From: a virus
Lineage: Duplodnaviria; Caudoviricetes
Direction: 5' to 3' (one strand)
DNA length: 64,000 bases
Virus record (IMG/VR): IMGVR_UViG_2724679183_000002
Coordinates: 1-64,000 of that record
The notes under the pieces were generated by a model. It ran no database searches, was not told the DNA's origin, and worked only from the letters and a program-made list of their open reading frames with translations. A program made the position numbers and the translations under genes. Below, piece after piece: positions 40,690 through 55,308 of this stretch; within the stretch, counting starts at the first letter, position 1, and every line of letters begins with the position of its first letter.

Positions 40690-41484
40690 TTAATTGCCAA
40701 CGTCTACGGATTTAGTTTGAGATTCTGTGTCAGAGCCAGGATCTGGATCAGCGACAAAGTTATCATCTCTGCTTGCTTCAATAACAACAGCCATCTCATC
40801 TGTGTCAGTATCGGCCAGCGCTTCAAATTTAATTTCTGGAGATAATGCATTACCGTTCTCAAGTGACATTTCAAATTCGCCTGAAGGGGATACGTTAGGA
40901 AATTGAATGTAGATATCGCTATAGACCTCTTCGGTATCAGGATTATAAGCAATTGTACGGTATTCAACTTCATATCGCTCAGAGAATTTGCTTGCCTTGA
41001 TAGCGAGTCGTCTGCCGATTTTGTTAATCTGGTACACTGCTGTTAACTTCTCTTTTGTTCCAGCAAATCCAGTTGGGATTAAGTAAGTACCATCAGTCGA
41101 TACAGGTGTCTTGTATGTAACACCTCTTTTATTATAGAAGGTCACATCACTTACCGGTTTACCTTTTAGAGTAACCGTATTTTTGTCATCAACAATCAGA
41201 CCATGTTCGCGGTCAAATACCTGAACTTTAGCTTCTTCTTCAATTGTTTCACCTTGTGTCATTGCCAACCATTCAAGGTCGAAAAATGCATTCTTGACAG
41301 TAAGATTAATTTCTTTTTCAGACTTCAAAATATAAAGTGGTTTATTCCCAATACCACCACGAAGCTTATCTTCAGAGATGGTTTGGGAGAATGAAGCTGT
41401 TTGTGCTTCTGCTGTGAATACAAGCTGACCATCAGATTTTCTTCTGAAATAAACATCAGCTGTATCTTGAATAACTGTTTTCAT
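40690..41484 (-). CDS. yomU: Major tail tube protein
   Basis: MKTVIQDTADVYF..KSDG, LRGGIGNKPL, KNAFFDLEWL; very close to the recalled 264-aa SPR/SPbeta tail tube sequence. Confidence 0.92.
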   Translation of the reverse strand: MKTVIQDTADVYFRRKSDGQLVFTAEAQTASFSQTISEDKLRGGIGNKPLYILKSEKEINLTVKNAFFDLEWLAMTQGETIEEEAKVQVFDREHGLIVDDKNTVTLKGKPVSDVTFYNKRGVTYKTPVSTDGTYLIPTGFAGTKEKLTAVYQINKIGRRLAIKASKFSERYEVEYRTIAYNPDTEEVYSDIYIQFPNVSPSGEFEMSLENGNALSPEIKFEALADTDTDEMAVVIEASRDDNFVADPDPGSDTESQTKSVDVGN

Positions 41485-49185: not shown

Positions 49186-50955
49186 TTAAAAATAGACTAG
49201 TTCATCTTCAACGTCATATTCAGTTTGTTTGTTTAACTGCCTTTCTAATACAGTGGCAATATAGTTGCCATAAGCCACCGAGCTATATCTGTCTTTTCGT
49301 TTACTCTTTGGCTCTTTAAGCTTAACTTGTCCGTTATCGCTATATTCAGCTTCTAAGTTGATCATTTCATTTATTAGAAGTGTAATCTGAGCATAGCTTG
49401 AAAGGAATTTCCCTTTAACTTCAGGGGATAACCCTTCATAGCCTTTAAATCTTTTCAGGTATTCTTTTCCTTCATTTTCATTGATAGGAATTTTGATTTT
49501 CCCTCGTTTGAATCCATCTTTGAGCAATACCGCAATTTCGCTGTTCAATTGTGCATTACCTTTAATGCTATAAATTACTTTTTTAGCATTTTGATAAGTA
49601 CAACGTTCAGCCATTCTTTCATCGTTAATACATGAAAATGGCTCGTATTCTTTTGCACGTTCTTTATCATATAAAGGCTGGCATAATGCATCATACACAC
49701 CAAGTCCGATGCTTTGAGTGTCCAATACAATATAATCGCAATCATAATCTTCGTATATTTGTCGAATTCTTGTTGCTTGAGTTCCTGTATGACCACCTAC
49801 GATGCTCTCCATGTAAACGATATGACGATCATATCCATTAGAGTTTGGAATCAGTCTGAAAACAGTGTAAACACTGGCATCATTATCCTTACCGGCCATT
49901 CCAGCGATATCATTGCTCACCAGTCTAATTTCACCAGGTTTCTTGCCTTCATATTTGAAGTTGGAATCTTTGATTAGGCTGTAATAGTCAGGTGGAAAGA
50001 GGGGAGAAGCAAGTTTGCGGTTCTTTTCTATGTCTTCAAATTTAAAATAAGCTTTTTCAGATTCACCAAACCAGAGGGCTTCCATTTCCATTGACCAACC
50101 AATAGGATCGAAGTCTTCTTCAGCCATTTCATCTCGAACCTGATCTTTATCCAAAAGTCCTTCTTTAATTGCGATCTGGTAAGGGAGGCCACAAACAAAG
50201 TATTTGGATCCTTTCATCATTGCATTATAGTATGTAATGAATCTGTTAAACGACCAATGAACTTTATACCAGCAGGATGACAGGTAAATTTCTTTGTTTC
50301 GCTCTTTGAGATGAGCATATTCCTCTTTTTCGAGATATTTAGGAGAACGGGGAGCAGTTAGGAATTTTCGGAGTACTTTACTGATGATTTCAAAATCAAC
50401 CATTCTGAATTCATCTACAATGAGGAGGTTTGCACGTTTGGAGCGTGCTCCATCATTTGAGGCAACGATTTTAATCCAGCTACCATTATGAAACTCAACT
50501 TTAGCGTCATTTGTTGAGGTTTTTAAGTCTTCTATTTCTCGCCTTAAATTAGGTGATTCTTTACGTAAGTCATCAATTTTTTCTATGACTTCACGTGCTT
50601 GTCCTTTTGTTCCTGATGCAATAACTATTTTAGTACCTGGGAAGAGGATGGCTTGTACACAGCAGTATACAGAGGTTAACCAAGTTTTACCCTGACCACG
50701 ACTGGCCAGGTACATAAAATAATGGTTATATACCATCATGTAAATTAAAATACATTGGAATAATTTAAGTGTAATACCCAAGTATTCTTTTACAAAACGA
50801 TGTGGATTTGCTCTATAGAATGAAGTCCATGCGCCAATACCATCCATCAATCGTTCGGATTTTGATTTCTTTTTAAAGTTGTTTCCCTTTTTAAAGATAT
50901 TAATTCCTCGACTGTGCTTATTGCGATCTGTTGTGAAATTTTTATGCGAGGTCAT
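49186..50955 (-). CDS. yonF: Terminase large subunit
   Basis: ASRGQGKT Walker A, LIVDEF Walker B, LSS motif III; nuclease [19 protein letters not shown]. Confidence 0.93.
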
Positions 50956-51862
50956 TTTCTCGATCCTCTTCTTCTGCAACAGGTTCTTCAACCGTGTGCT
51001 TATTCATTTCATCCCAATATTCCTCTGAATATTGATTTTTCAAACCAAGCATTCGGGACAGATGACCAAGGAAAAATACCTTAATGTATTTTCCGATTTT
51101 ATCAGGATCTTTCCACCTAGGCTCTGGTTCAGGAATGGGTCGTTCATTCTCATATTTTTTTATCAGAGTGCCAAAAGACTCTTGTTCAACTCCACTTGCT
51201 CCAGTTTCTTGAACCGGTTTTAAATTACTTGAGCCGAGTAGGTCTTGAAGAGTTTTTTGCTGCTGATCAACTTTTTCACCATTTTCACGCCGTTTGCGGA
51301 TATCTAGTCGAGTCAAACATATTTCATTTATAAGAAGTTCCATTCCTTTAGAGTCACATTCATACCTATTTGTGAAATCAATGTATTCATTCTGAAGCCA
51401 AATGTAATCTTCAACATCAAGACCCCGACCCCAGAATTGCATTAATTCCTCAATGTCTTCCTTAGAGATATCTTCTGTACTTTTAGCTAGTAATAGTTGT
51501 GTTGTGTATTCTTGTTCTTCTTCAAAGTCAAATTCACTATCTGCCCAAGTTTTTGACTTGTAATCTTTCATTCCGATATTTTTCATATACGTACCTAACA
51601 CATTACCATCTGATTTTTTCTTAGAGCCCGATTCGTTAACAGCGGAAACCCACAAGTCGTAAACAAAGGGGCGATCAATCATCCTCAAGATGTTTTGCAC
51701 ATTCTTCAAGTTATCTTTGTCTTTTTGGAATTCATTTTGAAGACAACTCTTACATACTGCCAGTTTGCCAGTTGCAGCATTAAAAGGGGATTCAGAGATA
51801 TAAAATTGGTTTGAATTTTGTTCTTTCCCACAGCATGAGCATTTGATTTTTTCTGTAGCCAT
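50942..51862 (-). CDS. yonG: Zn-finger protein, probable terminase small subunit
   Basis: CSCC..CKSC N-terminus; overlaps terL start. Confidence 0.65.
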
Positions 51863-51968
51863 TTTTCACCTCCAATTTATTGGTTCAAAAACACGTTTTA
51901 TAAAACGCCCAGCAATAGAGAGGGAGTAGAGATTTCTCAATCATCACTGGACGTTCTAAAAAAGTATT

Positions 51969-52469
51969 TTATTTATAAGTCAAGTTACCATTATTGGACA
52001 AAACAACCTTGGTTCCTTTTAAGATATCAGCAAGCGCATCAAACAAACCTTTTCCAATACCGTTTGCATCAATTATTAATTTACTCGGTCTTTTGTCTAT
52101 AATCATAGCTTTTATTTGAGTAGCCTGATGTTTAAACGTCCCATACTCCAATTTCTTAGAGATGTCTTCAATACGTGAATTATTTAAGTCAATAATTAAA
52201 AAGGTTGTACTTTCTCTTCCAGGATCAATTACAGCAATCCTTTCAGGAATATGACCCGCGCTTAATGTATAGTTCGTTCCGTTTAAGGGCTTAGTAGAAA
52301 TTTTGACATCTTGGTTCAAATGGTCATTTTTATTACTTTTCTCAAACCCAATACTTTTATGTAGACTTGTCAGAGCATCTTTTAATTCTCTGTTACAAAG
52401 GTAACCACTATCATTAATTTCTTTCAGTAGTTTTACATATTCCCAAAGCACTTTAGTTTCTTCTTTCAA
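51969..52469 (-). CDS. yonH: Stand-alone terminase-nuclease-like protein
   Basis: IAVIDPG and LIIDANGIGKGLFDAL resemble Ter[17 protein letters not shown]; name by synteny. Confidence 0.65.
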   Translation of the reverse strand: MKEETKVLWEYVKLLKEINDSGYLCNRELKDALTSLHKSIGFEKSNKNDHLNQDVKISTKPLNGTNYTLSAGHIPERIAVIDPGRESTTFLIIDLNNSRIEDISKKLEYGTFKHQATQIKAMIIDKRPSKLIIDANGIGKGLFDALADILKGTKVVLSNNGNLTYK

Positions 52470-52501
52470 TCTTCATCATTCCTCATCGTAATGTTTATAT
52501 T

Positions 52502-52699
52502 TTAGTAGTTTGTCCAGACAGTCTCTTTAACTTCATCTTTAGTTAAATGACTAAATTTGTCCCAATCTTTTTCGTGAACATTAAAGTTGAATTTGCTGAG
52601 CAAAAGCTTTACATCCTCAACTGTTTTAACTTTGTCAAAGTCAATTTCTCTGTATTTGATTTTTTCCGAACGTGCAACTGCGGACATAATCATACTCAT
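52502..52699 (-). CDS. Small hypothetical protein
   Basis: 65 aa, GGGGGG RBS, IDFDKVKTVEDVK motif. Confidence 0.65.
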   Translation of the reverse strand: MSMIMSAVARSEKIKYREIDFDKVKTVEDVKLLLSKFNFNVHEKDWDKFSHLTKDEVKETVWTNY

Positions 52700-52738
52700 A
52701 AAAATCCCCCCATTGATTTGGATAAAATTAAAGTTTTA

Positions 52739-53194
52739 TTAATAGTGAATTTTAAAGAATTCGTTATCTAATGGGTTTACTTTAAAAATCAAATCTAAAC
52801 CTGATACTTCTCCATTAACACCTTTAAGTTCTGCTCTAGAAATAATTTCGACATTGTTAAATTCTAAAGTAACCTTATGTGACTTTGATGTCTCAAGATG
52901 ACGGCCAATTGTTTCAGCTAATAATTTGAATTCAGAGCGAGGAGTTTCTTTTAAAACTGAAATATATTGTTTCTTCCCTAACTTTGATTCAAAGGAGGTA
53001 GGGGATTTATAATCACCTAAAAATTTAAGCACATCAAAATTGAGCAGAGCGTTTTTTGCAAAAATTAAATACGTTTCATGTTCATCGCTATAAAAAATTT
53101 CAACATCTTGAAGAGTCGTTAAATCAATTAAAGATTCTTCAGTTTTTCCATCATACAAATGAAGGTTATACACTTCGTGCATTGCTAAATCCAA
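52739..53194 (-). CDS. Truncated tail-tube-like protein
   Basis: Collinear motif similarity to the 40690-41484 product (see findings); RBS AAGGAGAG. Confidence 0.6.
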   Translation of the reverse strand: MDLAMHEVYNLHLYDGKTEESLIDLTTLQDVEIFYSDEHETYLIFAKNALLNFDVLKFLGDYKSPTSFESKLGKKQYISVLKETPRSEFKLLAETIGRHLETSKSHKVTLEFNNVEIISRAELKGVNGEVSGLDLIFKVNPLDNEFFKIHY

Positions 53195-53303
53195 ATTTAT
53201 TCTCTCCTTTAAGATATAGACTCAGAAATTACCTTCTTAAATTCTTCCGAAAATTGACCCCAATAAATAGATAGTTCGTTTATAAATGAAGCAATGCTCA
53301 ATA

Positions 53304-53678
53304 TTAATCCTCCTTTATGTAATGCGATACACGTTCAGATAATTTCTTATGCATCAATCGAAGTGAAGTTCTAAGAAAACCTAAAGTTCTACTTAATTCT
53401 CCGAAAACACAACTTAAACTATGATAAGCTTTAAAATCACTTTTATTAAATGAAGTAGCAATAAAGGTTTTGAGATTTTCGATTTCAGATGAAATTAACT
53501 TATTCATATTTGCCAAGTATTTAATTTCACTCATGTCTTGAGTATTTATCAATTTCATGTACTCACATAATGATTTGGCGACAGTTTTATATGCAGGATG
53601 ATTACCTTCTTTACGTAGTTCAGACAGCTTACTTAAGCAATTACCGATATTTTCTTCGATGAAATCTTTATTTTCCAT
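53304..53678 (-). CDS. Helical hypothetical protein with internal duplication
   Basis: Two ~45-aa helical units each with a central AY; RBS AAGGAG. Confidence 0.65.
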   Translation of the reverse strand: MENKDFIEENIGNCLSKLSELRKEGNHPAYKTVAKSLCEYMKLINTQDMSEIKYLANMNKLISSEIENLKTFIATSFNKSDFKAYHSLSCVFGELSRTLGFLRTSLRLMHKKLSERVSHYIKED

Positions 53679-53718
53679 AATCGTTCTCCTTGAAAGCGAT
53701 TGGTCGCAACCCTATATT

Positions 53719-54918
53719 TTATTTTTCATTCTTAAATCTAATTATGTATGTAGCTTCAATTCCTTCATCGTTAAACACCATAAACTTTTGAGACGGTTTT
53801 GTGCCAAAGCGTCCCTGCATGGCATAATCATCCGCACCGACAAGCGCGCCGTTTACTACAACTGTTGTGCTGCCGTACTCTTTTTCATAATTGTGATGAA
53901 TATGACCACCGAATATGTAAGAAGGGATATAGCCAAGCAATTGGGGTAATCGTGTTACACACTGATCAACACGATCGTAGTGGCCGTGCACAAACACGAC
54001 TTCCTGATTGTTGATTTTAGCGGGGATGAAGCCGTCTTGCTCAGGTTCAATGGAGATGTTCTTTATATCTTTCAATCTGGCTTCAAGATACCAATTAATA
54101 AGATATTCAAAGTTTTCTTTAATCCCCACATCATTTTTAGAAGGGGAGAGGCGACCGTGATTACCAGCCACATTGTAGAATTTAACCTCTTGAAACTCGC
54201 TTGCCATCATAGCCAACACCTCAGCAAGTGATTCTGAGACATATTTTATTTGTTCTACAGCATCTTCATTGGCCTGAACTCTTGTAGACACATGAATAAG
54301 ACCTCCGATTAAATCACCGAGGTTTGCCACGTGTAGTGTGGAAATATGATTCTGTTTACCGTACTCAATAACTTTGTTGGTCAGGTGCTCTACACGCTCA
54401 TTAAAGATTTCTTTATTGAATTTATTGATGCGGTTGTCAATTTCCATTCCGAAGTGCCAATCACTGAAAAGAGCAAGTCCATGTTTTTCAGTAATAGCAG
54501 GTGATGGGAAGGTGAAGCGAAGAGGTCTTTTTGACTCTAGAGATGCAATGGCTTGTACAACATCATCTTTAATTTTTTCAAACCGTGCTTGATTGGCGAT
54601 GAATTTTCGGTATTCTCTTTTTTGATCTCGGGCTTTGATTGTTTGTTTTTCGGATTCAATGCGGATTTCTTCGTGTTTTTGTTGAACTTCTTTGTTCATA
54701 TTCTTTGAGATAAAATAATCGTGCCAGCGCTCATATTGTTTAAAGTCTTTACGCCACTTGCTTTCATCATAGTTGGTTCCTTGATCCTTATTTAAAAGGG
54801 AAGCAATTGTTTTTGTGTCAATGTGATAAGTATCTTTGTTTTTGAAAAGCCTAATATGATAATCAGTGAATGATTCGTCTTTTTCTCGTTGCAACACAGG
54901 ATCTAAAATAGCTGTCAT
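53719..54918 (-). CDS. yonJ: Calcineurin-like metallophosphoesterase
   Basis: FSDWHFG, LGDLI, GNHGR, VHGH, GHIHH motifs. Confidence 0.88.
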   Translation of the reverse strand: MTAILDPVLQREKDESFTDYHIRLFKNKDTYHIDTKTIASLLNKDQGTNYDESKWRKDFKQYERWHDYFISKNMNKEVQQKHEEIRIESEKQTIKARDQKREYRKFIANQARFEKIKDDVVQAIASLESKRPLRFTFPSPAITEKHGLALFSDWHFGMEIDNRINKFNKEIFNERVEHLTNKVIEYGKQNHISTLHVANLGDLIGGLIHVSTRVQANEDAVEQIKYVSESLAEVLAMMASEFQEVKFYNVAGNHGRLSPSKNDVGIKENFEYLINWYLEARLKDIKNISIEPEQDGFIPAKINNQEVVFVHGHYDRVDQCVTRLPQLLGYIPSYIFGGHIHHNYEKEYGSTTVVVNGALVGADDYAMQGRFGTKPSQKFMVFNDEGIEATYIIRFKNEK

Positions 54919-54929
54919 TCAGTCACCAC

Positions 54930-55139
54930 CTACTCAGAGAGTCCTTCAGTTTCTAGGGGTACAACTTCACTATCGCTTTTTAGAGTAAAATCAATTGGTT
55001 CTGTTTTGCTTTCAATCTCTCTTAGATATTTAGACAGTGAGTGAATATGAATGCCATCATTTTTATACTCAATGATTTGATCTTCATCTACATTTACAGT
55101 GCATTTTTCAAAAGAGTATTCTTTCTTACCTTTAGCCAA
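54930..55139 (-). CDS. yonK: YonK-like small protein
   Basis: TTG start after GGAGG; AKGKKEYSFEK N-terminus; first gene of late cluster. Confidence 0.7.
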   Translation of the reverse strand: MAKGKKEYSFEKCTVNVDEDQIIEYKNDGIHIHSLSKYLREIESKTEPIDFTLKSDSEVVPLETEGLSE

Positions 55140-55168
55140 ATTTGATTCCTCCAATTATTTGTTTTATT

Positions 55169-55308
55169 TACGTACAATAAGCTCCTTCGGAAGCCCGATG
55201 ATCCGAAGCATCGGTAACGTCCGAGAAGGGGATATAAAGGAGATGAAAGATAATAAGTCGGATAGGCGTTGGGGAAACGCCCGAAGGAGATTATTGATAA
55301 CTTGCGTA
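55169..55308 (-). ncRNA. Predicted four-way-junction RNA with C/U-rich loops
   Basis: Closing stem CTCCTTCGG/CCGAAGGAG and three inner arms, one capped by cUUCGg on the minus strand. Confidence 0.6.

Follow-up and report, generated by a model that had tools for sequence, protein, structure and literature searches.

A small, optional paralog of the tail tube protein in SPbeta-like Bacillus prophages, possibly a counter-defence look-alike of the tube subunit

Several bacterial immune sensors, DSR2 included, fire on conserved virion proteins, and an editorial counts the tail tube among the phage proteins bound by Avs proteins (PMC13728456). The NADase DSR2 is activated only by the monomeric tube protein, whose D2 domain was not seen in the complex, and an engineered tube of phage SPR in which loop 1 (Q34-K57) was replaced by a glycine-serine (GS) linker formed a stable complex with DSR2 without activation or killing (PMC10981675). 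In a separate account of the DSR2-tube complex the hairpin and the BS2 domain were not resolved, and the contacts were made by loop 202-213, by both sheet edges of BS1 and by the pocket that lies between these sheets (PMC10973363). The inhibitor DSAD1 acts by occupying the tube's pocket on DSR2, and is said to 'mimic TTP', the tail tube protein (PMC10973363). Here, a short minus-strand open reading frame (ORF) is described from a window of 64,000 nucleotides (positions 1 to 64,000 of IMG/VR record IMGVR_UViG_2724679183_000002, a virus of the Caudoviricetes), which an earlier reading of the letters, referred to below as the original prediction, had taken for a truncated paralog of the tail tube protein lacking the polymerisation loop. 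The window comes from a provirus of 140,932 bases, complete by CheckV, and belongs to the SPbeta group, as its megablast and tblastn matches were all Spbetavirus-like Bacillus phages. Coordinates of the paralog, the tube gene and their neighbours are collected in Table 1.

The paralog arose long ago as a duplicate of the YomU/SPR-type tube gene of the phage itself and has since diverged. The window carries a genuine tube gene of this type, residues 1-240 of whose product are nearly identical to the SPR tube (the BS1 core almost identical). The flexible C-terminal tail of this tube (residues ~241-264, window 40690-40761) differs from that of phage SPR, and the tubes found in IMG/VR records group at 95-97% and at 87-88% identity to the window's tube. 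Identity between the paralog and the tube is only ~11-13%, and comparison of the single sequences was not significant (BLASTP E value 0.57, phmmer E value 6.8); a shallow alignment of 13 sequences gave an hhalign probability of just 5.7%, and a wider alignment was required. These three values are what can be said for chance similarity, or for a decaying and functionless gene fragment.

The wider alignment was drawn from an exhaustive HMMER search of 1.84 billion representative proteins, in which the paralog family comprised 22 clusters at 50% identity, 20 of them with members of 146-167 amino acids (aa) and the other two being one 104-aa piece and one 201-aa protein. Fourteen close relatives, 61-95% identical to the paralog, came from Bacillus and Priestia; the distant members were mostly from read assemblies, and one was assigned to Priestia megaterium by cluster look-up. 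Relatives of the distant proteins P0049, P0056 and P0054 were not found in scans of IMG/VR, and tblastn searches of P0056 and P0066 against cultured phages returned only the same five Bacillus phages as the paralog itself. The resulting alignment, A3, held the window's paralog and 27 of 35 distinct family proteins (28 sequences, with identities to the paralog down to 23%), P0003, P0007, P0009, P0010, P0012 and the short P0013, P0014 and P0052 being left out. Its counterpart for the tube family, A2, held 33 sequences, namely the window's tube and 32 of 34 relatives, with the short fragments P0019 and P0020 left out.

Alignment of A3 to A2 by hhalign (-mact 0.05) placed residues 1-145 of the paralog on tube residues 1-228 (score 39.6, E value 1.7e-5, probability 78.5%; E value 8.3e-5 in a separate run), with a confidently aligned block of paralog 74/78-141 against tube 156/160-224. 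Among the controls, the reversed tube alignment scored 14.7 (E value 0.21), the best of 20 column shuffles 18.4 (E value 0.056), and an unrelated alignment (A5) gave an E value of 0.32. All six of the motif pairs by which the paralog had been likened to the product of 40690-41484 fell in register with this alignment. The sole PHROG matched by the paralog family was phrog_2729, the tube family, found by 21 of the 28 members with a best E value of 7.2e-9; the window's paralog itself matched it at 2.9e-4, over residues 86-142 only (profile positions 178-234 of 252). Searched against the provirus, the A3 profile recovered the tube gene (E value 0.006). The precomputed label PF27173 (YomU_Tube) was carried by 2 of the 14 close homologs of the paralog and by 34 of 34 tube homologs, and in the ESM Atlas, where PF27173 is likewise named YomU_Tube, a cluster of 158-aa proteins bears it on 21% of its members; a local copy of Pfam-A that does not contain PF27173 gave no match for the paralog or for three of its homologs. 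One further candidate relative, MccB, returned from the PDB by a sequence-profile search, was rejected as a chance match (E value 0.11).

A model of the paralog was predicted with AlphaFold2 from A3 (mean predicted local distance difference test score 85.1, predicted template modelling score 0.78). In a Foldseek search of the PDB, chains of the SPR tube (9jgh, 9jgi, 8xkn, 8ygm) filled the top 10 places, with E values of 2.1e-6 to 2.6e-4 and TMq of 0.66-0.73. Among the 50 matches listed from BFVD, those with names read major tail, tail tube, tail or structural protein, bar one protein with a cell-adhesion domain, and ~16 had no informative name. Because of these matches the fold of the paralog was taken to be the tube fold, and its nearest solved relative the tube of its own phage group. 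Set against the SPR tail tube, the predicted model had the same fold, the SPR tube structures being its top matches, and the profile, PHROG and structural evidence agree on a truncated tube paralog that has neither the tip of the polymerisation hairpin nor the inserted domain. This structural reading, which upholds the core of the original prediction, is held with high confidence.

The two-sheet beta-sandwich of the tube (BS1/D1), with the helix that follows the hairpin, is present in the paralog. Two gaps of 4 and 13 residues, at tube positions 27-30 and 35-47, remove ~17 residues of the hairpin, among them G44-I45-G46-N47, a motif that never varies across the 33 tube sequences and that the paralog lacks. 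A third gap, of 63 residues at tube positions 81-143, removes the outer BS2/D2 domain, in whose place the model has only a short strand and a helix. The claim that the LRGGIGNKPL hairpin region and most of the inserted domain are missing was thus borne out for the tip with its GIGN motif and for the outer domain, and needs amending for the rest of the hairpin, which is cut short and not wholly absent: a short hairpin survives in the model (strands 21-36 and 41-50). Since the family alignment shows only small changes of length there, the short hairpin can be regarded as a trait of the family.

Assembly of the tube depends on three interfaces, of which the first is an intra-ring contact between the strands at residues 159-163 and 203-209, the second is made by BS2 packing on the neighbouring subunit, and the third is the hairpin (residues 36-56) that interlocks the rings (PMC10973363). 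The paralog retains counterparts of the first of these only and for that reason is probably unable to build a tube; it would not stack, and would not serve as a building block of the tail.

The paralog is a genuine accessory gene, maintained by purifying selection in SPbeta-like Bacillus prophages. Each of 20 copies, from the window, from 18 IMG/VR loci and from phage BUCT083, had an intact frame. These copies represent 16 distinct alleles, and the ratio of nonsynonymous to synonymous substitution rates (dN/dS) over 105 pairs drawn from them had a median of 0.13 and a range of 0-0.21. A strong Shine-Dalgarno site stands ahead of its start codon (Table 1). Intact frames, low dN/dS and the ribosome-binding site weigh against decay, as the agreement of profile, reciprocal-profile, shuffle-control and structural evidence does against chance; either explanation is now scarcely credible, and within the limits of sequence analysis both are excluded. 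Two studies contributed RNA-library contigs (window 50900-55200; coded runs X1, X2, X4 and X5) that carry a paralog allele of ~94% identity and span from YonJ into the paralog, which directly follows YonJ there, 21 other letters replacing 532 bases that include a 124-aa ORF. Such contigs cannot show strand, level or transcription, and are for this reason at most a weak hint that the paralog is transcribed.

For the function of the paralog, a counter-defence role was ranked first, ahead of its rivals. On this tentative reading, held at somewhat less than even chances, the protein would be a mimic of the tube subunit, acting either as a decoy for a sensor or as a shield of free tube monomers, and its target need not be the DSR2 of B. 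subtilis strain 29R; the carriers with YomU-type tubes hint at a different one. The look-alike would be made together with the late proteins. It could then fill the pocket of DSR2-like sensors, which recognise free tube monomers, while failing to supply the activating loop; or it could pair with the free beta-edges of newly made tube monomers and so hide them until they are built into a tail. A narrower version, close to the decoy that the original prediction had put forward, is more doubtful: the phage would have duplicated the trigger and stripped it of its firing loop and polymerising parts, and the core, expressed ahead of the tube, would saturate DSR2-like sensors or cap monomers. The decoy is made plausible by the engineered loop-deleted tube, which binds DSR2 without activating it. 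The paralog, a natural core-only tube fold with a shortened loop 1, has the architecture to be expected of a non-activating binder. Also in favour of a decoy, the provirus has a tube of the DSR2-triggering type and no DSAD1, and the paralog is accessory and without the two parts that interlock rings and buttress neighbouring subunits.

Several observations weigh against the counter-defence reading. In IMG/VR, the paralog was present in 12 of 26 records with an SPR-type tube (the window included) and in 5 of 26 with a YomU-type tube (Fisher's exact test, p = 0.075), counts that include many fragmentary and many mutually related records; among the 25 records with an SPR-type tube other than the window, 14 had no paralog. 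Restriction to records at least 90% complete left the paralog in 6 of 11 SPR-type and 5 of 14 YomU-type records (p = 0.43), and among cultured phages it was found in 1 of 4 SPR-type and 4 of 21 YomU-type records. Two records stayed out of these counts: L055, with just 36 residues of tube at the end of a contig, and L054, whose tube is only 38% identical, although L054 had been part of the search. On these counts the paralog is neither needed by phages with the triggering tube nor restricted to them, and its association with the DSR2-triggering allele is weak and falls short of significance. The family, moreover, is old (identities down to 23%) and slowly evolving; many arms-race genes evolve faster. 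The tube is made in very large amounts, and simple competition would therefore require a high affinity for the sensor.

Nor are the residues of the known interface conserved. Tube residues A9, A27, A30, F32 and Y175 are named as contacting Tyr574 and Phe576 of DSR2 (PMC10973363); the paralog has Y9, a gap, a gap, L28 and A93 at these positions, none of the five being identical, in a comparison of which only the Y175/A93 pair falls in the confidently aligned block. DSAD1, identified as YotI through PDB entry 8k9a (E value 5.6e-78), was not found in any of the 19 paralog-bearing IMG/VR records, this provirus included, by a search whose control detected it in SPBc2 and gave no match in SPR or BUCT083. 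It was present in nine phage records (SPbeta, phi3T and hybrids), none of which had the paralog, and conversely none of 24 paralog-carrying records had DSAD1. This non-overlap lends the counter-defence reading little weight, since DSAD1 is rare, deriving from two independent phages, and the pattern is expected by chance.

The distribution of the paralog also bears on the possibility that it is an optional helper of tail assembly or a minor part of the virion, with no immune role. As such it might form a non-stacking ring, comparable to a terminator, adaptor or initiator, or act as a chaperone against premature polymerisation. The cultured carriers are BUCT082, BUCT083, Goe11, Goe14 and SPbetaL8, five of the 25 Bacillus phage records with a tube homolog. 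BUCT082 combines the paralog with an SPR-type tube and has no DSAD1. SPbetaL8, the only carrier of the paralog among the eleven phages of one study, is reported there just as Gabija-sensitive, and DSR2 is not among the systems which that study tested (10.1101/2023.05.01.538930). The paralog is absent from SPbeta and SPR, in both of which the syntenic place was checked, and from phi3T, and these phages build working tails without it; SPR, which is sensitive to DSR2, has no DSAD1 either. It combines freely with both tube alleles, which are only ~41% identical to each other, and it lies ~11 kb upstream of the tube and the rest of the tail module, at the head of the late operon and in a slot of variable gene content. 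All three facts make an assembly helper rather unlikely.

On the minus strand the genes around the paralog run in the order YonK-like, YonJ-like, 124-aa ORF, paralog, 65-aa ORF, YonH-like, YonG-like and large terminase (Table 1). In all 18 IMG/VR loci, as well as in BUCT083 and genome contig L006, the paralog stands right behind YonJ, and it keeps this place even where the YonJ allele is only ~25% identical. The 124-aa ORF separates the two genes in the window, in L006 and in only 2 of the 18 IMG/VR loci (L012 and L013). Downstream of the paralog the content varies between several YonH alleles, the 65-aa ORF and a ~110-aa ORF. The stretch from YonJ to YonG (window 52470-53718, with the loci L008-L025 and L001-L003) is thus a variable slot that can hold the 124-aa ORF, the paralog, the 65-aa ORF or the ~110-aa ORF; the place is taken in SPbeta by yonI, read from the other strand, and in SPR by no more than a 31-aa ORF. 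From this variable content it follows that the paralog is an optional gene in a variable slot, and the slot might serve as a site for genes of accessory or anti-defence function.

Table 1. Features of the window, listed by position from the tube gene to the YonJ-like gene
Feature	Coordinates	Strand	Remarks
Tail tube gene, SPR/DSR2-trigger type, 264 aa	40690..41484	minus	PDB 8k98/9jgh, E value 6.5e-146; phrog_2729, E value 3e-63; parent family of the paralog
Large terminase	49186-50991	minus	After the YonG-like gene
YonG-like protein, 306 aa	50942..51862	minus	phrog_3314; with the large terminase that follows, opens the packaging and virion genes
YonH-like ORF, 166 aa	51969-52469	minus	phrog_31869; within the variable slot 51969..52699
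65-aa ORF downstream of the paralog	52502-52699	minus	Within the variable slot 51969..52699
Mini tube paralog	52739..53194	minus	ORF of 151 aa; predicted BS1/D1-only YomU/SPR-type tube fold
Shine-Dalgarno site, AAAGGAGA	53203..53210	minus	Read from the sequence; 8 nt ahead of the TTG start codon of the paralog (53194-53192)
Optional 124-aa ORF between YonJ and the paralog	53304..53678	minus	No family or solved relative found
YonJ-like metallophosphoesterase	53719..54918	minus	phrog_284 'exonuclease'; constant upstream neighbour of the paralog

Three side observations were made on these neighbours. The YonJ phosphoesterase occurs as two alleles ~24-25% identical (loci L016, L018, L025, L002 and L003), which are swapped independently of the paralog. 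The YonH-like alleles (window 51969-52469; L008:10714-11253; L013:10837-11379; L016:10541-11083) have their N-terminal helical part in common and differ in the C-terminal half; three of them have a Walker-A-like GKGKTT where the window's allele has PGRESTT. For the window's YonH-like protein, the best non-self match in the provirus was the large terminase, at an E value of only 0.05 (phrog_5713, E value 0.015), and an AlphaFold2 model from 9 sequences was poor (mean predicted local distance difference test score 63.3), its fold search giving only helical-hairpin matches with Z at or below 6.5. L006 is a 133-kb contig labelled Streptomyces sp., from an assembly of ~9.1 Mb, that carries a 94%-identical paralog with the YonK, YonJ and 124-aa ORF neighbours known from a Bacillus SPbeta-like prophage; contamination or mislabelling is the probable explanation.

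The fixed place behind YonJ speaks for another rival, in which the tube fold has been reused for an unrelated job tied to the constant neighbours, be it a ring or clamp working with the Mre11/SbcD-like phosphoesterase YonJ or a part in the start of packaging with YonH, YonG and the terminase. The acidic character of the protein (isoelectric point 5.2) and the presence in its family of conserved motifs of its own, not found in tubes, would suit such a role. SPbeta and SPR, however, have YonJ, YonH, YonG and the terminase without the paralog, little can be read from position alone when a phage is mosaic, and no tube-fold partner of Mre11/SbcD-like nucleases is known to us, no search aimed at one having been made. 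Fold reuse was accordingly rated about as improbable as an assembly helper.

A scan of the window found no terminator-like site and no promoter above background between the paralog and its neighbours (22 promoter sites observed, 21.3 expected). With no promoter of its own inside the late operon, the paralog would be expressed solely in the lytic growth of the phage that carries it, whose tube would therefore be the first that the protein meets. This fits poorly with the second proposal of the original prediction, a capping inhibitor of rival phages, in which a subunit unable to stack would poison or cap the tails of co-infecting or co-resident SPbeta-like phages. A retained core that could slot into a ring, the missing stacking hairpin and BS2, and the accessory and patchy occurrence of the gene are what such a weapon would have; because the paralog is found alongside either tube allele, nothing points to discrimination between self and non-self. 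A weapon against related phages is regarded as quite improbable.

With the counter-defence reading still placed first, the wider meaning of the locus can be set out. The finding defines a small family, mostly of ~150 aa, from Bacillus, Priestia and uncultured sequence, whose members are mostly labelled 'hypothetical' in databases, and it shows that tube genes spawn optional, non-polymerising paralogs. Known answers of phages to sensors of this kind are unrelated small inhibitors, such as DSAD1, or a swap of the tube allele; if the counter-defence reading is true, a selected stand-alone core of the trigger without the activating loop would be a third route. Full-text literature searches, which did not cover subscription journals, found no paper on the paralog gene or on tube-derived decoys.

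Compared with known systems, the paralog stands closest to the SPR and SPbeta (YomU) tube (PF27173; phrog_2729; PDB 8xkn, 8ygm, 9jgh, 9jgi and 8k98). Both come from one phage group and have the BS1/D1 beta-sandwich in common; they run collinear from the N-terminus up to tube residue 228, and the paralog has the helix that follows the hairpin as well as a loop-2 region as long as that of the tube. Residues common to the C-terminal strands of both are T95/I96 (tube T177/I178), F112 (F195), N114/V115 (N197/V198), N127/G128 (N210/G211) and F137 (F220). The paralog differs from the tube in having 151 against 264 aa, in lying outside the tail module and in being optional where the tube is universal. 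Hcp, tail terminators and caps, and the tube-like proteins of neck and baseplate are further tube-fold ring proteins among the known systems set beside the paralog. DSAD1, of 120 aa, is like the paralog a small accessory protein of the same phage group; as had been supposed, there is no sequence similarity between them (hhalign of A3 against YotI, E value 0.6, probability 0.09%). The engineered tube without loop 1 resembles the paralog in being a tube core without the protruding hairpin, and its non-activating binding is the behaviour that a natural decoy would require. Apart from that loop the engineered protein matches the trigger in full, D2 included, whereas the paralog is highly diverged and keeps ~7 of the 24 residues that were replaced in the engineered protein.

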